A stretch of 44,581 nucleotides of DNA from Escherichia phage vB_EcoS-K1_SXAU_B4. This document shows, piece by piece, positions 3,674 through 41,876 of the stretch; the first letter of the stretch is position 1, and the number at the start of each line of letters is the position of its first letter. A program made the translations under genes and the position numbers. A model generated the notes under the pieces. The model saw only the letters and a program-made list of their open reading frames with translations, was not told where the DNA came from and searched no databases. The DNA lies in sequence record OQ696342.1. One strand, written 5' to 3'.

Positions 3674-4018
3674 TTAAGACACAGTTGCTACAGTGCTGCT
3701 CGAGATAATATTACCATACGCATCGTGAACAACCACTTTATACGTGCCTTCGTCAGCTGGTTTAGCGGCGTTGGCTTTGGTATACGTCTTATCGGTAGCC
3801 CCAGCGATGGCGTTGTTATTCTTGTACCACTGGTAAGAATATGGCTCCAGACCGCCAGTTGCGACCACGGTCAGTGTCATGGTTTCGCCGGAGTTTACTG
3901 CGGTAGTAGCGTTAAGTGGGGTAGAAAAAGACGCAGGAGAAATAGTCGCCATGTCAATCTTAGCACCTACGGTATCCGCAGAGACGCCGGTGATGCGTCG
4001 TTTCAATACGTCTGCCAT
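3674..4018 (-). CDS. Ig-like (Big_2-type) domain protein, possible capsid decoration protein
   Basis: 114 aa; YQWYKNN...GTYKVVV pattern typical of Ig-like domains; immediately downstream of the capsid gene with RBS GAGGA. Confidence 0.6.
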   Translation of the reverse strand: MADVLKRRITGVSADTVGAKIDMATISPASFSTPLNATTAVNSGETMTLTVVATGGLEPYSYQWYKNNNAIAGATDKTYTKANAAKPADEGTYKVVVHDAYGNIISSSTVATVS

Positions 4019-4043
4019 TGAGGAATCCTCTTAGTAAATGAAA

Positions 4044-4063
4044 AGAGGGACCGAAGTCCCTCT
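4044..4063 (-). terminator. Hairpin (agagggac-cgaa-gtccctct) followed by a T-run on the minus strand; partial terminator after the capsid gene
   Basis: Perfect 8-bp stem with a tetraloop, then TTTCATTT on the minus strand just before the next RBS. Confidence 0.45.
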
Positions 4064-4073
4064 CGATTATATC

Positions 4074-5129
4074 TTAACCTTGAGACCCTACACCAGTTAC
4101 CAGGAAGGCAATCGGTACATGCTTACGGTCAACAACGCGGTTCCAGTTGGAGGCATTCGCCAGGTCCTGCCAGGAAGCGGAGCGCGGGGTAGTCTCGGTG
4201 CCGTTGCCGGTGATTACCGCGCTGGTGAAGCTGTAGCCCAGTGGGTGCAGCAACCAGGTCTTACGGGTCCACAGGGTTTCTACGCCGCCGCCGTTGCCGC
4301 GGGACGCTTCACGATCGTATTCCAGCGGGTTGGACGGAGAACCTTCACCGTAACCGATAGCGCCGTTGCCGAAGATGATGGAGATGAACTTACGGCTTGA
4401 GCCGGTGCCAACTACGGTCATGCTGTCGTCAACAATCACGCGGTAGCCCTGGTAGGTGGCGAACAGGGTGTCGTTGTCAGCGTTCTTGATGAAGTCAATA
4501 AGCTGCTGCTTACGGGCCTGCGCATAAACGAAGCTGTGCATCGCGATAGCACCCAGCACTTCACCACCGTTGCCCATCAGAGCATCACCCATAGTCTGGG
4601 TAGCGTCGATGAACGCACCTGCGTCGAAGCCCAGAGAAGCAGACACGTCGATAACCATATCGTTCTGCGTATGGTATTCATCGGTAGTGGCTACGTTGTC
4701 GTTGTACAGCCCGAGCGCGGTAGCAATCAGACGGCGTTGCGCCTGGCGCTGCCAGAAGTTATCCAGACGGGCCGCTACGGATTTCAGCGGGTCTTGGCGG
4801 GTAAGTTCAACAGTCAGGTCCGCCTGACCGAAACCTTCGTTCAGGTAGGCAACGCGGGCCATCATCTCACCGGTCTGCACATTACGCAGGGTAGCGATGT
4901 CCTGGTATACATCGTTCGAGTAGTTAGGCTCAATAGAAGTATCAATCGCTTTCCAGAAAGGAATGTTGGCGATGTTGGACGGGCCGCGAGCAATCTCGGC
5001 AGCGTATGGGGTCGGGGTCAGAATACCGGACTGGAAGAACGCGGTTTTTTCTACCGGGTCCTCGGTCATATAAGACGCCAGGACCGGGATGTTGCCAGTT
5101 ACGATATCGCCGATAGTGGTAATTGCCAT
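4074..5129 (-). CDS. Major capsid protein
   Basis: 351 aa, directly after the scaffold gene; terminator-like hairpin downstream; assigned by position and size. Confidence 0.75.
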   Translation of the reverse strand: MAITTIGDIVTGNIPVLASYMTEDPVEKTAFFQSGILTPTPYAAEIARGPSNIANIPFWKAIDTSIEPNYSNDVYQDIATLRNVQTGEMMARVAYLNEGFGQADLTVELTRQDPLKSVAARLDNFWQRQAQRRLIATALGLYNDNVATTDEYHTQNDMVIDVSASLGFDAGAFIDATQTMGDALMGNGGEVLGAIAMHSFVYAQARKQQLIDFIKNADNDTLFATYQGYRVIVDDSMTVVGTGSSRKFISIIFGNGAIGYGEGSPSNPLEYDREASRGNGGGVETLWTRKTWLLHPLGYSFTSAVITGNGTETTPRSASWQDLANASNWNRVVDRKHVPIAFLVTGVGSQG

Positions 5130-5131
5130 TA

Positions 5132-5887
5132 TTATTTCCTCAGGGCTTTAAGTTGCCGTTCAAATTCGGCAGGGTTCGATTTATACAGAGCTAAACGCTC
5201 CGCTTCACTCATGTCTTTAAACGCTGGTGCGGCCCCGCCGCCTTTGCTACCGGAAGCCCCGCCGCCGGAAGCTGCATTTGCTTTAATCAAATGCGAAAAC
5301 GCTTTGTGTTCACGCAGGTATTTGCGGAACTGTTCCGGGTCAGTTGTGATTACATTGCCATCTGCGCCAACAAACTTAGTAACCACGTCATCACCTTCGA
5401 ACTCAGTCTTAACGAACGGAGCAAGGATGTCCACTGCTTCCGGGGTAATAAAGTCACCTGCGAAAGAGCCTAACACCGCTTTACGTTCGCTGCCGAGGAT
5501 GCGCTCTGCCATTCTGGAGATGCGGCCATCTTTCTCGGCTAACACCGGGTCATACTGGCTACGAATCGTTTTTTCGAACTCATCCATCTTACCAGCGGCT
5601 TTTAACGCCTCCTGGTGTGCGCGCTGCCGTTCTTCTTCGGCCTCTTTTGCTTTACGAGCGGCTTCTTTCTTCTCCGCCAGCAATGCTTCCTGATTAGCCT
5701 TAAGCCCGGCCACTTCTTTCTCAATCAGTGCCTGAACTTCTTCAGCGGTGAACATTTTCGGCGCATCACCGCCGCCAGATTTATCTTCTGCCCCAGCTTC
5801 TTCCCGGAACGGATAACGTAAAAAACGATTCATAGTCAGTATGTCCCCTGGACGTTGGAACCCGGGCCACCCGGATTTACATGTCAA
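5132..5887 (-). CDS. Scaffolding protein
   Basis: 251 aa, charged and coiled-coil-like (EKKEAARKAKEAEEERQRAHQEALK), upstream of the capsid gene; true start may be the internal MNRFLRYPF. Confidence 0.6.
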   Translation of the reverse strand: MTCKSGWPGFQRPGDILTMNRFLRYPFREEAGAEDKSGGGDAPKMFTAEEVQALIEKEVAGLKANQEALLAEKKEAARKAKEAEEERQRAHQEALKAAGKMDEFEKTIRSQYDPVLAEKDGRISRMAERILGSERKAVLGSFAGDFITPEAVDILAPFVKTEFEGDDVVTKFVGADGNVITTDPEQFRKYLREHKAFSHLIKANAASGGGASGSKGGGAAPAFKDMSEAERLALYKSNPAEFERQLKALRK

Positions 5888-5915
5888 GAATAAATTATTC
5901 CAACATGCAAGGCAA

Positions 5916-6179
5916 CTATTCCAGAATATTCCTCACGTAATCCTGCAACATGAACACTTTCAGGCGCAGTTGCCGTACACATTCAGCGTTCTGGACGTCA
6001 ATAGCTAAATCCTCGTCAGCGTCGCTACTTGGCTGTGCCAGTTTGCACGGCGGCTGCATCATCGTCGTATCCGGGGATGGAATTGGCGTTTGCGACGGCT
6101 CGGGACTTGAGCAGGACGCGAGCATCATCGAAAGTGCACATGCTGCGACCAGGCGTTTTAATGTACTTAACGACTTCAC
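5916..6179 (-). CDS. o-spanin (Rz1-like outer membrane lipoprotein)
   Basis: 87 aa; signal peptide with lipobox L-A-S-C (LVAACALSMMLASC), proline-rich mature part; overlaps the 3' end of the i-spanin in another frame. Confidence 0.65.
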   Translation of the reverse strand: MKSLSTLKRLVAACALSMMLASCSSPEPSQTPIPSPDTTMMQPPCKLAQPSSDADEDLAIDVQNAECVRQLRLKVFMLQDYVRNILE

Positions 6180-6411
6180 GGGTAATTACCTCTGATTTCG
6201 TCTTGCCTTCGTTGTCAGCGGCTGCGGCCTTTGATTCATCCTGCTGCTGCCGTTGTGTTTTCTTCGCTAACTCAGCCTGTGCTTTCTGCTGCTGCTGCGA
6301 AACGAGATTAGCCCGGCCTTCTTTCCAGCCGATGCGGTATTGATAGTAGCCGTGAGCATATAACAGGATGATGAAACACGCCCCCGCTACGACAGTTGCT
6401 CTAAGATTCAT
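6025..6411 (-). CDS. i-spanin (Rz-like)
   Basis: 128 aa; N-terminal transmembrane segment (TVVAGACFIILLYAHGYY) followed by a Q/A/K-rich coiled-coil region. Confidence 0.65.
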   Translation of the reverse strand: MNLRATVVAGACFIILLYAHGYYQYRIGWKEGRANLVSQQQQKAQAELAKKTQRQQQDESKAAAADNEGKTKSEVITREVVKYIKTPGRSMCTFDDARVLLKSRAVANANSIPGYDDDAAAVQTGTAK

Positions 6412-6730
6412 GTTTCTCCTTTCTCGATAAGTAAAGCCCCGCCATAAAGCGGGGCGCTAGTCCTTATCATTTAAACATAGAAACGGCGTAATCTCAGTAA
6501 ACCCGTTACTTTTTACACAAGCAATAGAGTATGACCCTTCCGAACGCGTCAGCGTAACTACACTCAGGACTTACGTCCCGCTCCGTTACCTGCCCGCGCC
6601 GCGGTCGCTTGTTCATACTTCACAAGCTCAGGTGGAGCTTAGCACATTTTTAGTGAAAAGTCAACTATTCGAATAGTTTATTCCAAGATTTACAATTCGG
6701 TGGAATAACTGGAATACACAAACAAATAGT

Positions 6731-6759
6731 TTGCACACACCAATATAATAGGGTACTAT
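6731..6759 (+). promoter_or_regulatory. Sigma70-type promoter TTGCAC-N17-TACTAT (cassette family copy)
   Basis: -35 at 6731..6736, -10 at 6754..6759; conserved leader with RBS GGAG 7 nt before ATG 6787. Confidence 0.6.
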
Positions 6760-6786
6760 TCAGTTATCGAAACGAGGAGATGAAAA

Positions 6787-7308
6787 ATGGTTACTACAGT
6801 AATTACTTTCCCCGCGTATGTAGGGGCAAAAATCTGCAGGGCGAAAAATGATGTGCGCTATTATTTGAATGCGTTTTACATAGACCCGGAAGGGTGGATA
6901 GTGTCTACGGACGGCCATAGATTGTTCTGCGACAATGTTAAGACAAACGTCGAGAATGGGGTTCTCATAGACATCAAAGGGAGAGAGCCTTCTAAATTTA
7001 ACTACGCGGAGGTAGACCACGACAACGGCAGTGTATCTTTCTATGACGGCAGTCGTGCGCTTATATGTACACTTCCGGTGGATGTTGTAGACGGAAAATT
7101 TCCTGACTGGCGACGTGTTGCGCACATCACGCCGGGGGCGGTTGATAGCATAGGATTCACCATGTCCTACTTGGCAGACGCGCACAAGATTTCTAAGGCA
7201 TACAAAAATGAAATTGCTCGTTTCGATTTCCAGGACCAAACCAGAGGATGCAAAATATCGTTTTCAAACACTGCATTTATGGTGCTAATGCCGGCGCGAT
7301 TTAAATAA
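6787..7308 (+). CDS. Truncated beta sliding clamp (DnaN-like) protein
   Basis: 173 aa; motifs DVRYYLN, TDGHRL, VDGKFPDWRRV, SIGFTMSYL and C-terminal MVLMPARF match, in order, remembered E. coli DnaN motifs (QDVRYYLNG, ATDGHRLA, VDGRFPDYRRV, EIGFNVSYV, YVVMPMRL); covers roughly domain II and part of domain III only. Confidence 0.7.
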   Translation: MVTTVITFPAYVGAKICRAKNDVRYYLNAFYIDPEGWIVSTDGHRLFCDNVKTNVENGVLIDIKGREPSKFNYAEVDHDNGSVSFYDGSRALICTLPVDVVDGKFPDWRRVAHITPGAVDSIGFTMSYLADAHKISKAYKNEIARFDFQDQTRGCKISFSNTAFMVLMPARFK

Positions 7309-7312
7309 AACT

Positions 7313-7335
7313 AAGGCCCCGTAATGGGGCCTTTT
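7313..7335. terminator. Bidirectional rho-independent terminator (aggcccc-gtaat-ggggcct + TTTT)
   Basis: GC-rich 7-bp stem flanked by an A-run upstream and a T-run downstream, between convergent genes. Confidence 0.7.
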
Positions 7336-7798: not shown

Positions 7799-8901
7799 TA
7801 TTCCCCTTTCAGATAATCAGCAACACGTTTATCGAGTTCCGCCATCTGCTTAAGCGTGAGCGGATTCCCGAAACCATCTACAGATATTACGCGAAACTCT
7901 TCCGGCGATATACCGCTGTTGCGGAAAATCTTACCGCGAACAGGGCCGAGCGCCTGGTCCTGAAACCATGCAGGTTGTTGTTTCAGGAACTCGTAATAAG
8001 TGGTGTCGGCGCTTACCTGAGTACCGCCGTCCGCACCTTTAGCCGCTCGTTTCGCTCCTACGTCCAGGAAGTCGAACTCGGAACTGATTACAGGGGCTGT
8101 GCACGACCGGCAATTCGGATGGGCGGGAGGCATCGGCCCTTTACCGATTTCCCACGTCATCCCATCTCTGGCCTTGCAAACGGCTGAGGTCCTAGAATCA
8201 AGAGTAGACACCCACTCGTACTTCTCGATGATGTCGTCGTTCTGGCGGTACGTCTCGTTGCGAGCTTCGTTGGATACGTGAGACAGCGCGGTGCGGATTA
8301 CTGTGGCTGCGTTACGTTCAGAGATGTCCGCCAGCCCGCCCGCGCCTACTACATTCTTAACAATCTGCCGTGTTGTCTGGCCTTGTACGAAACCCATCTT
8401 AACGCCAGTTACAAGACGTGCTACTTCCGTTTCACCCCAGCCCGACATCAGTTTAGTGAAGTCAACAGGCTTGTCGCTCAACGATAGCGGTTGAAACTCG
8501 GCAGCAGCCCACACCTGTTCAGCGGTAGGCGTAACAAATTCCGCATCTACGTTGGCGGTCAGTGTCTTTACGTTCCATTCAGCCTCATACGCCGCCAGCT
8601 CCTTAAGGTCTTCTGTCAGCTTTGTTTGCCAGTCACCTGTAAGTCCAGTTAGCGCTTCTTCGAGGTCACGTAACAGTTTATTCAGCCGGGCGGTGCTGCG
8701 ACCTTCGTCGCCAAATAGCAGAACCTGCCGTTTGATTTCGTCGCGCATTTCCTGAATGAACGGCGCAAGGTCTTTCACTTCACCGGAAGCGGTGCGTTGT
8801 AGCCATATCTGGTGGCTGATTAAGGATGTAAGTAAGCTCATAGGCCCTCCTGTAGTATCGACAGTGTAACGCATAAAAATAATATTTGCAGACACCAACA
8901 T
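7798..8901 (-). CDS. Head morphogenesis protein (Mu F-like / SPP1 gp7-like minor head protein)
   Basis: 367 aa; LDSRTSAVCKARDGMTW...PPAHPNCRSCTAP matches the Mu F family motif; downstream of the portal gene. Confidence 0.8.
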   Translation of the reverse strand: MLVSANIIFMRYTVDTTGGPMSLLTSLISHQIWLQRTASGEVKDLAPFIQEMRDEIKRQVLLFGDEGRSTARLNKLLRDLEEALTGLTGDWQTKLTEDLKELAAYEAEWNVKTLTANVDAEFVTPTAEQVWAAAEFQPLSLSDKPVDFTKLMSGWGETEVARLVTGVKMGFVQGQTTRQIVKNVVGAGGLADISERNAATVIRTALSHVSNEARNETYRQNDDIIEKYEWVSTLDSRTSAVCKARDGMTWEIGKGPMPPAHPNCRSCTAPVISSEFDFLDVGAKRAAKGADGGTQVSADTTYYEFLKQQPAWFQDQALGPVRGKIFRNSGISPEEFRVISVDGFGNPLTLKQMAELDKRVADYLKGE

Positions 8902-8914
8902 AATAGGGTACTAT
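8886..8914 (+). promoter_or_regulatory. Sigma70-type promoter TTGCAG-N17-TACTAT (cassette family copy)
   Basis: Near-identical to the 6731 and 41818 cassettes; leader TTATCGAAACGAGAGATAAGGAATTTAGAAATG. Confidence 0.6.
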
Positions 8915-8948
8915 TCACTTATCGAAACGAGAGATAAGGAATTTAGAA

Positions 8949-9412: not shown

Positions 9413-9721
9413 ATGCGGAAAAGAAAGAAGACTACTAAAAAATACGCGTACAGATATCTTGTCGGGGATTCTAGCGAGTTCCCGGATTCAGAAGACTACG
9501 ATACATTTAAAGCTGTTATATTCGCCAGCGGATGTGTTTATGTGTGCCAACATTACGACGTCGACGCTCCGCAAACAATACACATCCTGTACGCCGATTT
9601 CAGAACGTCTGAATGGATGAAATCATGGTTCAATGGTTTTACAGATTCAATAATATCAAGAGATATTGGCAATCATAAACTCGTAGCGCTAAGGGAAGTC
9701 TGGAAAACTAAGGCCCCATAA
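9413..9721 (+). CDS. Hypothetical protein (moron island)
   Basis: 102 aa ORF followed by a strong terminator. Confidence 0.45.
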   Translation: MRKRKKTTKKYAYRYLVGDSSEFPDSEDYDTFKAVIFASGCVYVCQHYDVDAPQTIHILYADFRTSEWMKSWFNGFTDSIISRDIGNHKLVALREVWKTKAP

Positions 9722-9733
9722 CGGGGCCTTTTT
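9710..9733. terminator. Bidirectional rho-independent terminator (aaggcccc-ataac-ggggcctt + TTTTT)
   Basis: GC stem plus T-run between the plus-strand island and the minus-strand portal gene end. Confidence 0.7.
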
Positions 9734-12470: not shown

Positions 12471-13051
12471 TCCTCTACCTCGCCCATGTTCGTTGTTACG
12501 ATTTTACCTACAGGCTCCGCAACACTGAAAATAATCTCGGTTGGTGCTGTTTCTTCGGTGGATTCGACTGGTTTATCTTTACTGAGGCCCAGCTTCGCGG
12601 CAGCAAACGTAGCCGAGATGCCCGCGGCCCCTGTCTCAGTGAAATATGCCTCTTCAAGCGCCTGTGCTGTCTCATATGCTTCTGCAAATGCGGGAATCTC
12701 ACGCAGCCACAGCTTAATAATCGGGATAGTGACGCCGATGTGTAAGGCGAAGCGGGCCAGTGACGGCGGTTTATCCTGAATCAGGGGGCGTTCGTCACCC
12801 TTAGACGTGGGCACAAGCTTCCACGACGTGCGGTCGAAGAACTCGATTAGCGCGTCGCAATAGTCCGGGTCCCACAACGCGGCGGAATTACGGGATGATT
12901 GGTAAAGGCTCTGTTTGCCACGCGGTCGTTTACGGCGACGGTTTGCGCTAACAGCTTCTTCATGTGCAGCTTGCACCACCTCTGGCGATGGCTGCTTAAG
13001 TTTCAGCTTCATAGAATCCCCTTGCATATGCGTCTGACCATCAGAGCGCAC
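12467..13051 (-). CDS. terS: Putative terminase small subunit
   Basis: 194 aa, directly upstream of and overlapping terL by 4 nt; no motif recognised. Confidence 0.5.
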   Translation of the reverse strand: MRSDGQTHMQGDSMKLKLKQPSPEVVQAAHEEAVSANRRRKRPRGKQSLYQSSRNSAALWDPDYCDALIEFFDRTSWKLVPTSKGDERPLIQDKPPSLARFALHIGVTIPIIKLWLREIPAFAEAYETAQALEEAYFTETGAAGISATFAAAKLGLSKDKPVESTEETAPTEIIFSVAEPVGKIVTTNMGEVEE

Positions 13052-14894: not shown

Positions 14895-15133
14895 TTCTTC
14901 TCTCCCGCATAAGCTGCTTTCAGTGTCTGCATCGCAGCGAACCAGAACGCGGACGCCGGAATGCTGTTGCTCAGGTTACTAACGGCGATGCGTGCCATCA
15001 GTTGTGCGTCTTTGAATGCTTCGATATCTGTGATTTTCATCTTCTCTACTCCGTTCTCGTTGTCGATGAAGTAAATATAGTAGGGTCGACGGTAATAGTC
15101 AACTAGTCATTGCAGGAAATAGATAAAAAAAAT

Positions 15134-15154
15134 CCCGGCTGGGTCAGGGCCGGG
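15134..15154 (-). terminator. Rho-independent terminator after the lysis cassette (cccggc...gccggg, T-run on the minus strand)
   Basis: Stem flanked by an A8 run on the plus strand, which is T8 on the minus strand, downstream of the endolysin gene. Confidence 0.6.
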
Positions 15155-15220
15155 AAAAAACTGGAGAGTAGAGGGATGGAACAGGAGGTGATTTAAGTAT
15201 CGTCGGATTAGTCTCAGGTG

Positions 15221-15727
15221 TCAACCTTTCACCGCGCGACCGATAGCCTCAGCCTCTTGCCACGGTTTACCGTCGAACAGGGCCAGACGGCCCGCAGTAC
15301 GGCGGCGCAGGCCGAGAACAGGCTCGAGTTTGCCCGTTTTCGGGTTGCGTTGGTTGATGAACTGGCTCATCTTGTGCCGTAAGGTAGGGATGTCACCCTG
15401 TCGTAGTGCCTTACCGGTTCCGGTCGTCGCCGCGATAACACCGGTTCCGGCGTTAAACACCAGGTCAACAACGGCATCAAACTGAGCCTGGGTCAGTGAG
15501 GGGTGCGCGACCTCATCAACTGCTTTCACTGCCCACCGCATATCACGGTTTAGTAGCAGAAGCCCCTGGCCTTCAGTAATTTTCTGCCCTTCATACACAT
15601 CCGGCCCGGTATGGCCCCAGCCTATAGTCCAGTATTTCTCGTTCTTTGTAGCTTTGTATGCAGTTCCGCGGAACTTCTCCCACGCTTTCTTGAACTGCAA
15701 TCCATTATCTGAAATGTTTCGAGACAC
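15221..15727 (-). CDS. Endolysin, GH24 lysozyme
   Basis: AYKATKNEKYWTIGWGHTG matches the T4/P22-type lysozyme motif (YxDxxGxxTIGxGHT); start placed at GTG 15727 with RBS GGAGGG (longest ORF extends to 15778). Confidence 0.8.
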   Translation of the reverse strand: MSRNISDNGLQFKKAWEKFRGTAYKATKNEKYWTIGWGHTGPDVYEGQKITEGQGLLLLNRDMRWAVKAVDEVAHPSLTQAQFDAVVDLVFNAGTGVIAATTGTGKALRQGDIPTLRHKMSQFINQRNPKTGKLEPVLGLRRRTAGRLALFDGKPWQEAEAIGRAVKG

Positions 15728-15977
15728 GCTTGTGCCCTCCGTATGACAGCCACGCCTGGCGAATCTGGCGCAGCGCAACTAATGTGATTAATGTCTCCGG
15801 CAGCGTTGGTGACATGCTGCCCTGTAACAGGTGGATGCATCCGGCGGCGCAGACGATAGCAGTCAGGATATAGAGCACCCGACCGAATAGTCCGTCGTCA
15901 ACGCTGGGGTGATATACATTAAACAGCGATGTGCCCCCAATTGCCAGCATACCGCCGAACCAGAATAACTCATTCAT
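15705..15977 (-). CDS. Holin/antiholin-like membrane protein (2 predicted TM segments)
   Basis: 90 aa from the internal ATG at 15977 with RBS GAGGAGG; ATGAATGA coupling with the upstream holin stop; MNELFWFGGMLAIGG and VLYILTAIVCAAGCIHLL are hydrophobic. Confidence 0.55.
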   Translation of the reverse strand: MNELFWFGGMLAIGGTSLFNVYHPSVDDGLFGRVLYILTAIVCAAGCIHLLQGSMSPTLPETLITLVALRQIRQAWLSYGGHKRVSKHFR

Positions 15978-16278
15978 CCGGGCCTCCTCGACGTGCGATG
16001 TATTCTCCGGCGACGATGCCAGAAAGGCGGGAATAGATAGGCATCCAGAGAATGGCAATGATGAATCCGAGGCCAGCGATTTCACGGTCGCCCGTGATGC
16101 CGAACCATTGAGCCGCCAGAGGTGCACCAAATACGGCGCAGGTGAAACCAGTTGCAATAAAGCAGAATCCGTCGATGGGGCCAGAAATAACGGACTTATG
16201 TTGCCGTAGTCCGATAACCCCTCCGGCTAGTGCGGCGGCCAGAAGCCACCCCGTCACTGTTTCAGTAAATTTATCCAA
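15970..16278 (-). CDS. Holin (3 predicted TM segments)
   Basis: 102 aa; three hydrophobic stretches, charged C-terminus; apparent TTG start with RBS GGAGGA. Confidence 0.6.
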   Translation of the reverse strand: MDKFTETVTGWLLAAALAGGVIGLRQHKSVISGPIDGFCFIATGFTCAVFGAPLAAQWFGITGDREIAGLGFIIAILWMPIYSRLSGIVAGEYIARRGGPDE

Positions 16279-19147: not shown

Positions 19148-19181
19148 TTCTAAATTCCTTATGTCTCGTTTCGATAAGTGA

Positions 19182-19210
19182 ATAGTATCCTATTATATTG
19201 GGGTGTGCAA
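19182..19210 (-). promoter_or_regulatory. Sigma70-type promoter TTGCAC-N17-TACTAT on the minus strand (cassette family copy)
   Basis: Reverse complement: TTGCAC (19210..19205), 17-nt spacer, TACTAT (19187..19182); leader TCACTTATCGAAACGAGACATAAGGAATTTAGAAATG. Confidence 0.6.
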
Positions 19211-22798: not shown

Positions 22799-22828
22799 TT
22801 GACAACATGAATAGTTCGCTATTATAGT
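22799..22828 (+). promoter_or_regulatory. Sigma70-type promoter TTGACA-N18-TATAGT with an AATAG-N4-CTATT core in the spacer
   Basis: -35 at 22799..22804, -10 at 22823..22828; leader AAACGAGAGGAGAGAAACAAATG. Confidence 0.55.
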
Positions 22829-25399: not shown

Positions 25400-25428
25400 T
25401 TGACACCTGAATAGTTAGCTATTATATT
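25400..25428 (+). promoter_or_regulatory. Sigma70-type promoter TTGACA-N17-TATATT with an AATAG-N4-CTATT core
   Basis: -35 at 25400..25405, -10 at 25423..25428, upstream of the SSB-like gene. Confidence 0.55.
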
Positions 25429-41817: not shown

Positions 41818-41846
41818 TTGCACACCCCAATATAATAGGGTACTAT
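41818..41846 (+). promoter_or_regulatory. Sigma70-type promoter TTGCAC-N17-TACTAT (cassette family copy)
   Basis: Near-identical to the 6731 and 8886 cassettes. Confidence 0.6.
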
Positions 41847-41876
41847 TCACTTACACCAACAATGAAGGGGTTTAAA

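Follow-up and report, generated by a model that had tools for sequence, protein, structure and literature searches.

Escherichia phage vB_EcoS-K1_SXAU_B4 very probably carries a Jersey-family two-component spanin at the head of a late structural unit, apart from its holin and endolysin genes

The DNA analyzed here, referred to below as the window, is the whole stretch of 44,581 nucleotides in record OQ696342.1. Two overlapping minus-strand ORFs occupy positions 5916 to 6411, and a sequence-only reading had taken them for an Rz-like i-spanin gene and an Rz1-like o-spanin gene. The upstream gene (6025..6411, minus strand) starts with ATG in the ORF table, encodes 128 aa, and is preceded by the SD sequence AAGGAG (6421..6416). 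Its product matched the PHROGs family phrog_2536, "Rz-like spanin," from end to end (E = 1.9e-54). Hydropathy analysis revealed a single N-terminal membrane helix at residues 1 to 23 (KD17 maximum, 2.02), with Arg4 before the hydrophobic segment, as had been proposed for this protein; the segment is followed by a stretch rich in Gln, Ala, Glu, and Lys. All homologous proteins retrieved were relatives of at least 86% identity without Pfam domains, too close for a deep alignment, and the AF2 model, computed from the single sequence, is weak. It consists of a helix at residues 3 to 84 and another at residues 94 to 107, with a pLDDT below 55 beyond residue 60 and a pTM of 0.29. The helix starting at residue 3 and the hydropathy of residues 1 to 23 both correspond to a type II inner-membrane topology, and the helix pattern of this low-confidence model is compatible with the secondary structure published for the Jersey spanin family. 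Cys92 was invariant in 6 homologues.

The downstream gene (5916..6179, minus strand) encodes 87 aa from a GTG start, with the SD sequence GAGG (6192..6189) 9 nt upstream. The N terminus of its product reads MKSLSTLKRLVAACALSMMLAS|CSSPEPSQTPIPSP and comprises a basic n-region, a hydrophobic core, the lipobox LASC ending in Cys23, a Ser at position +2, and a Pro-rich mature N terminus and linker. The site MKSLSTLKRLVAACALSMMLAS|C with Ser, and not Asp, at +2 is that of a predicted outer-membrane lipoprotein. Two further cysteines, Cys45 and Cys67, are present, and together with Cys92 of the i-spanin they provide periplasmic cysteines for possible intermolecular disulfides. Two PHROGs families, both likewise of the "Rz-like spanin" type, were matched, phrog_1267 (E = 4.5e-19) and phrog_5672 (E = 2.2e-30). 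When every ORF of 25 aa or more on either strand was scanned for a lipobox, this protein emerged as the sole credible lipoprotein in the 44.6 kb; the two other matches are antisense ORFs inside long genes and were discarded. The ORF table, the hydropathy profile, and the lipobox scan thus confirm the overlapping, Pro-rich o-spanin with a LASC lipobox that had been read from the sequence.

The o-spanin gene is in the +1 frame; it starts 155 nt before the i-spanin stop codon and extends 109 nt past it, which corresponds to an overlapped architecture. Its GTG start, and the fact that many database records carry only a version of 47 to 57 aa without a signal peptide, could be taken to mean that this ORF is a chance overlap and that the i-spanin-like gene alone is real. 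We regard this as extremely improbable in view of the following observations. (i) Both frames are open in all of the 44 colinear relatives. (ii) Upstream of the overlap, nucleotide diversity is highest at the third codon position of the i-spanin frame (0.249, versus 0.118 and 0.094 at the other two), whereas downstream of the i-spanin stop codon it is highest at the third position of the o-spanin frame (0.257 versus 0.091 and 0.034), and the switch of the most variable codon position falls exactly at the i-spanin stop codon. The intact ORFs and this switch indicate that the o-spanin ORF is not due to chance. (iii) Some Jerseyvirus relatives, such as Ent1, have an ATG start at the same position, and in the window the GAGG sequence lies 9 nt upstream of the start. 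(iv) The hydrophobic signal and its terminal cysteine are present in the o-spanins of every clade, including distant ones, with the lipobox variants LASC, LSAC, LSGC, LNGC, LFGC, TVAC, and MSGC. The lipobox cysteine and the two further cysteines are kept in all relatives examined, and the conserved motifs are PSPD..PC and D(A/S)DEDL..DVQN.EC.RQLRL.

The o-spanins of many deposited relatives are annotated in an N-terminally truncated form of 47 to 57 aa, with an internal Met as the start and with neither signal peptide nor lipobox cysteine; examples are found at 12817..12963 of locus L001 and at 3823..3996 of locus L003. The family phrog_5672 was built on this truncated form. The record of phage Schulenburg likewise contains a 48-aa o-spanin with an internal Met start and no lipobox, and the 87-aa ORF with the GTG start is the better model. 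Of practical value is that the annotation of the relatives should use the 87-aa ORF.

A segment of 2.3 kb around the spanin genes is 93 to 95% identical to the corresponding segment of Escherichia phages of the genus Kagunavirus (Guernseyvirinae), among them fFiEco03, XY2, Schulenburg, and Ivi, and weaker matches were found in approximately 360 records of Salmonella phages of the genus Jerseyvirus. The Jersey i- and o-spanin families have been described as overlapped, with an overlap of 155 bp, an o-spanin of 87 aa with constant Cys45 and Cys67, and a 128-aa i-spanin that contains a membrane helix as well as two helices; their members are Jersey, SETP3, Ent1-3, K1G, K1H, K1ind1-3, EP23, HK578, and SO-1 (Kongari et al. 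2018, BMC Bioinformatics 19:326; PMC6139136). The overlap length and the positions of Cys45 and Cys67 in the window are identical to these, and there is no material difference. In tblastn searches, the i-spanin was 61 to 65% identical to that of Ent1, SETP7, and SS3e over 96 to 100% of its length, and the o-spanin was 64 to 97% identical to that of Ent2 and K1H; the similarity to the Jersey families extends over the full length of both proteins. Overall, the alleles of the window are approximately 92 to 95% identical to those of other Kagunavirus phages and 61 to 95% identical to those of Jersey family members. The Pfam models Rz and Rz1 were not matched, the only sub-threshold signals being LysC (13 bits, with a cutoff of 27 bits) and DUF2514 (16 bits), and no spanin model of Pfam or NCBIfam scored above threshold; the identification is based on PHROGs, architecture, and homologues.

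The genes downstream of the spanins encode head proteins. The minus-strand scaffolding protein gene (5132..5833; phrog_206, E = 3.7e-55), the start of which was taken from the annotation of relatives, and the major capsid protein gene (4074..5129, minus strand; phrog_247, E = 2.2e-118) follow directly, so that the reported position of the spanins just upstream of the scaffold and capsid genes holds. The capsid gene is followed by a strong predicted intrinsic terminator (4043..4064, minus strand) with a 9-bp stem and UUUUCAUUU (z = -3.5), which is also an annotated terminator in Schulenburg. The 82-nt spacer between the o-spanin stop codon and the scaffold start contains GGAATAATTTATTC (5887..5901) and, after it, a conserved minus-strand hairpin (5859..5877); the annotation of phage Ent1 labels the latter a putative terminator, but in the window it has no U run. 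No terminator with a U tract was found between the o-spanin and scaffold genes.

On the upstream side, the spanins are separated from the head-morphogenesis and Hoc-like genes by a terminator (7313..7333), a gene on the opposite strand (6787..7308, plus strand), and a regulatory region of approximately 375 bp. The terminator, found in the terminator scan, is predicted to be bidirectional and lies between the Hoc-like gene on the minus strand and the clamp-like gene on the plus strand. The spanin genes had been placed in the head-morphogenesis operon. They do adjoin head genes; however, because the bidirectional terminator and the opposite-strand clamp-like gene intervene, they are predicted not to form one operon with the head-morphogenesis gene. 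The order head-morphogenesis gene, Hoc-like gene (where detected), variable spacer, i-spanin, o-spanin, scaffold, and capsid was observed in all 56 Guernseyvirinae-like IMG/VR loci, and the same gene order is found in the annotated relatives Schulenburg, Ivi, Ent1, and TS33. In the Dhillonvirus phage KarlBarth, the i-spanin gene overlaps the end of the minor capsid gene.

The remaining lysis genes are located elsewhere on the minus strand. They comprise a class I-like holin gene (15970..16278; phrog_2359) whose product has three hydrophobic segments, a gene for a second holin or antiholin (15705..15977; phrog_2508) that is class II-like, with one clear hydrophobic segment and a class II assignment in the annotation of a relative, and a gene for a soluble GH24 endolysin (15221..15727; PF00959, E = 2.7e-24) without an N-terminal membrane segment. 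They are followed by a predicted intrinsic terminator (15124..15155, minus strand) composed of UCCCGGC-9-GCCGGGA, with a 7-bp GC-rich stem, and eight U residues; this hairpin was missed by the automatic scan, which has a loop limit of 8 nt. The holin-like pair and GH24 endolysin at 15221..16278 with a terminator of their own, as noted previously, are therefore borne out by PHROGs, PF00959, and the hairpin with its eight U residues. The distance from the endolysin stop codon to the i-spanin start codon is 8.8 kb, close to the earlier estimate of approximately 9 kb, and this segment contains the terminase, portal, and head genes and three predicted terminators. The spanin genes are hence not adjacent to the endolysin gene, as they would be in a canonical lysis cassette. 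A spanin pair beside the endolysin gene, which the sequence-only reading could not accommodate, was sought by lipobox and small-ORF scans, and none was found: the small ORFs after the endolysin gene include none with a membrane helix or lipobox, and the lipobox scan, which covered the ORFs of 25 aa or more across the whole window, revealed no second o-spanin and no u-spanin candidate.

The position of the pair among head genes, far from the endolysin gene, and the lack of a curated Pfam or NCBIfam spanin model above threshold would also be compatible with a membrane protein and a lipoprotein that have a role other than lysis, such as superinfection exclusion or assistance in head assembly. T5 Llp and Cor are examples of superinfection-exclusion lipoproteins. 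Three lines of evidence make this explanation very improbable. First, distant homologues of the i-spanin (37 to 41% identity; tblastn E = 7e-13) and of the o-spanin (48% identity; E = 9e-14) are found where spanins canonically lie, immediately behind a PF16080 holin gene and a PF00959 lysozyme gene, at 24 loci, namely, Klebsiella phage Kp4886-1 and 23 further phages or prophages. Second, the overlap in the +1 frame, the combination of a type II protein with a lipoprotein, and the periplasmic cysteines constitute a spanin signature. Third, the lipobox scan left no other spanin candidate in the genome, and a spanin is normally required when a phage infects a Gram-negative host and makes a holin and a soluble endolysin. 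The family matches, topology, lipobox, conserved cysteines, and overlapped architecture thus support the assignment of both genes as spanins, and the sequence-only reading of the pair stands on the same evidence and on the homologues in lysis cassettes. What the analysis shows directly is the identity of the genes, their topology signals, the dual coding, the synteny, and the homology with spanins located in lysis cassettes; spanin function is predicted from architecture and homology. A literature search retrieved no experiment on the Jersey spanin family. The Kp4886-1-like cassettes resemble the window in carrying homologous spanins, 38 to 41% identical for the i-spanin and 48% for the o-spanin, in an overlapped layout, but their spanin genes are in the canonical position after holin and lysozyme; these loci show that the spanin family moved, or was captured, between genomic contexts.

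With high confidence, then, the pair is the two-component spanin of a Kagunavirus, belongs to the Jersey families, and would head a late structural unit apart from the holin-endolysin genes. Lambda Rz/Rz1 and P2 LysB/LysC also pair a type II inner-membrane protein with a lipoprotein of the outer membrane whose gene is in the +1 frame; LysB/LysC is overlapped rather than embedded, as is the pair in the window. In lambda and P2, however, the spanin genes come immediately after those for holin and endolysin on one late transcript, unlike in the window, and the mature o-spanin of the window is longer than those of lambda and P2 (65 aa, with a C-terminal helix-like segment). The separation of spanin from holin and endolysin genes is a documented, lineage-wide feature of the Guernseyvirinae that has already been published: it was stated for Schulenberg, a close relative (MRA 2019; PMC6763661) and is likewise listed in the articles on fBC-Eco01 (PMC9825357), Golestan (PMC7203180), and SeF1. 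As in the window, the order in Schulenberg and other Kagunavirus genomes is clamp-like gene, i-spanin/o-spanin, scaffold, and capsid. In T4, the genes of the two-component spanin PseT.3/PseT.2 are distant from t (holin) and e (endolysin), which shows that linkage is not needed (PMC6139136). The T4 genes differ from those of the window in having a "separated" architecture and unrelated sequences, and T4 has no lysis cassette at all.

Two promoter-like sites precede the i-spanin gene. The one nearest to it, TTGACT-17-(TGc)TAAGCT with an extended -10 element (6636..6664, minus strand), was read from the sequence and follows the palindrome GGAATAAACTATTC (6671..6684). Its -35 and extended -10 elements are conserved in Jerseyvirus and in phage TS33, and in Jerseyvirus no promoter candidate other than this site follows the Hoc terminator. 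Further upstream lies TGAATAGTACCCTATTATATT (6742..6762, minus strand), which the promoter scan scored as TCGATA-17-TATATT and which is a copy of a repeated promoter-like 21-mer, TGAATAGTAcCCTATTATaTT. This 21-mer occurs 6 times in the window versus 0 times expected by chance, at 6742..6762, 8897..8917, and 41829..41849 on the minus strand and at 19179..19199, 22808..22828, and 25408..25428 on the plus strand. Each copy is oriented with the adjacent genes and, with its flanks, forms a conserved block of approximately 45 nt; the approximately 2 kb preceding the holin genes contain no copy. An identical consensus has been described in the Kagunavirus phage fBC-Eco01 and ascribed there to a phage RNA polymerase (PMC9825357). 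We noticed no RNA polymerase gene in the annotations of the relatives examined. All of these promoter calls are consensus matches, and the scan returned 18 sites versus 11.7 expected by chance. A TTGACA sequence upstream of the scaffold gene (5886..5881) was rejected as a promoter because it has no -10 element and is not conserved as a -35 element in Jerseyvirus.

The near-palindrome GGAATA-N3-TATTC occurs twice on the minus strand, at 6671..6684, just upstream of the promoter-like site, and at 5887..5901, in the o-spanin/scaffold spacer. The two copies are shared by different genera, and there are further TATTCC repeats at 6702..6716. This near-palindrome may be a protein-binding site, although its 3 matches versus 1.4 expected are not statistically significant by themselves. 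The palindrome GGAATAnnnTATTC was rejected as a genome-wide operator, since its 3 matches, compared with 1.4 expected, are not significant alone and one of them corresponds to an SD-plus-ATG context.

Between the conserved promoter-like site and the SD sequence of the i-spanin gene is a leader of approximately 200 nt (6426..6625, minus strand) that folds better than shuffled sequences (z = -3.4). It contains two elements. The first is an irregular hairpin of 72 nt (6535..6606, minus strand), identified with a covariance model and without a match in Rfam. In the genomes searched, the model detected a single copy per Kagunavirus or Jerseyvirus genome and no copy outside these genera. In the alignment, 92.5% of the cells were paired and 9 of 23 pairs had changed on both sides, compared with 25 to 39% paired in slid controls; these values come from sequences that represent essentially two clades and from an alignment fitted to the model. 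G-U pairs on the minus strand indicate that the hairpin forms in the sense-orientation RNA. The second element is an extended, terminator-like or stabilizer-like hairpin of 18 bp (6426..6468, minus strand) with a GC-rich core (6436..6455) followed by UUUACUUAU. It ends approximately 5 nt before the SD sequence of the i-spanin gene, has a predicted energy of -23 kcal/mol (z = -4.7), and was the top terminator-like site in the scan. Its core shows compensatory CG/GC/UA exchanges, and its outer stem is GAUAAG/CUUAUC in Kagunavirus versus UAUACG/CGUAUA in Jerseyvirus, which amounts to covariation of the whole helix. Rfam searches gave nothing meaningful for the whole window at the gathering threshold or for 6380..6800 at E ≤ 10, and ARAGORN found no tRNA or tmRNA in the window. 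The leader element was not found upstream of the holin genes or elsewhere in the window, where blastn-short retrieved only the shared promoter 21-mer. An ORF of 36 aa within the leader (6506..6616), annotated as hypothetical in Schulenburg, was rejected as a gene and is probably noncoding, since Jerseyvirus lacks its ATG through a deletion and the covarying hairpin lies across it.

A strong terminator-like hairpin thus stands between the predicted promoters and the i-spanin start, and if it terminates transcription efficiently, expression would need read-through or antitermination. We tentatively propose, as a possibility well short of an even chance, that the leader (6606..6535 and 6468..6426) is an undescribed cis-acting RNA that controls the spanin-scaffold-capsid unit in Kagunavirus and Jerseyvirus. 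Its most plausible roles could be those of an attenuator or antitermination target, in the manner of lambda PR'-tR' or HK022 put, or of an RNase III processing or stabilizing site, in the manner of T7. If so, the leader would set the amount and timing of spanin and capsid protein, and it is the only element described here that is possibly worth an experiment.

These elements bear on how the lysis genes are transcribed. Almost all genes from approximately 18.3 kb to 1.1 kb are on the minus strand, and the spanins, although real, could be part of one long late transcript that runs from approximately 18.3 kb to the tail genes through leaky terminators or by antitermination, so that holin, endolysin, and spanins would be cotranscribed despite their distance. 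The poor U tracts at 9730..9710, at 5877..5859, and in the pre-i-spanin hairpin of Jerseyvirus are compatible with such a transcript, and the succession of a promoter, a leader of approximately 200 nt, and a terminator-like hairpin before late genes resembles lambda PR'-tR', at which an antiterminator is needed. Nevertheless, we consider a single transcript rather unlikely. Predicted intrinsic terminators on the coding strand lie between the two lysis loci at 15155..15124, 9730..9710, and 7333..7313; the first has its eight U residues and the last is a good terminator. In addition, opposite-strand genes with bidirectional terminators break up the block, and promoter-like sites kept across genera belong to the spanin unit itself. 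The favored arrangement is therefore that of separate units: the spanins appear to be the first cistrons of their own spanin-scaffold-capsid unit, which is predicted to end at 4064..4043 and to be distinct from the holin-endolysin unit. The earlier statement that the lysis genes are divided between two transcription units agrees with this insofar as the loci are separate and have three predicted terminators between them; the boundaries of the units, in turn, are predictions. A literature search found no transcriptome paper for the Guernseyvirinae.

We infer the mechanism of action from lambda Rz/Rz1, for which it is established; all transcription boundaries are likewise inferred. The unit would consist, in order, of the promoter-like sites at 6762..6742 and 6664..6636, the structured leader, the i-spanin, o-spanin, scaffold, and capsid genes, and the terminator at 4064..4043, while the two holin genes and the endolysin gene would form the end of a different unit that stops at 15155..15124. 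The spanins of the window are expected to form periplasm-spanning complexes like those of lambda. The N-terminal helix of the i-spanin would hold it in the inner membrane, the o-spanin lipoprotein would be sorted to the outer membrane, and their C termini would join across the periplasm. Such complexes would build up late in infection and stay inactive while caged by the peptidoglycan mesh; after holin triggering and degradation of the wall by the GH24 endolysin, they would bring about fusion of the two membranes and thereby the final step of lysis. The time of lysis is set by the holin, and spanin genes can therefore be unlinked from those for holin and endolysin; late expression suffices, and a position among head genes is tolerated. 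The layout confirms that linkage is dispensable, a point already made for T4 and Kagunavirus, and fits the model in which spanins are caged by peptidoglycan until the holin-timed collapse of the wall.

The spanin alleles themselves vary among relatives. The leader is 95 to 99.5% identical in 178 phage records, including those of Salmonella phages with spanins only approximately 65% identical to those of the window, and this combination of a conserved leader and divergent spanins indicates that the spanin genes act as an exchangeable module between conserved noncoding flanks. At loci L039, L040, and L054, the Hoc, scaffold, and capsid proteins are 90 to 95% identical, the leader is 97% identical, and the spanins are 61 to 72% identical to those of the window. 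Such mosaic alleles suggest that the module was swapped by recombination within the conserved noncoding flanks. In a divergent Guernseyvirinae-like clade (L053 and L055 to L060), the i-spanins are 49 to 56% identical to that of the window, the structured leader is absent, and an insertion of 0.5 to 1.2 kb is present between the o-spanin and scaffold genes.

The product of the small plus-strand gene beside the spanins (6787..7308) resembles a single beta-clamp domain, with weak similarity to DNA_pol3_beta_2, and its PHROGs label is "RusA-like resolvase" (phrog_3007). The gene is present in some relatives only (loci L012 to L014, L017, L026, L031, L034, and L036). At L036, it is located between the portal and head-morphogenesis genes instead. 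The clamp-like gene thus has the behavior of a mobile insert, with a bidirectional terminator on its flank.
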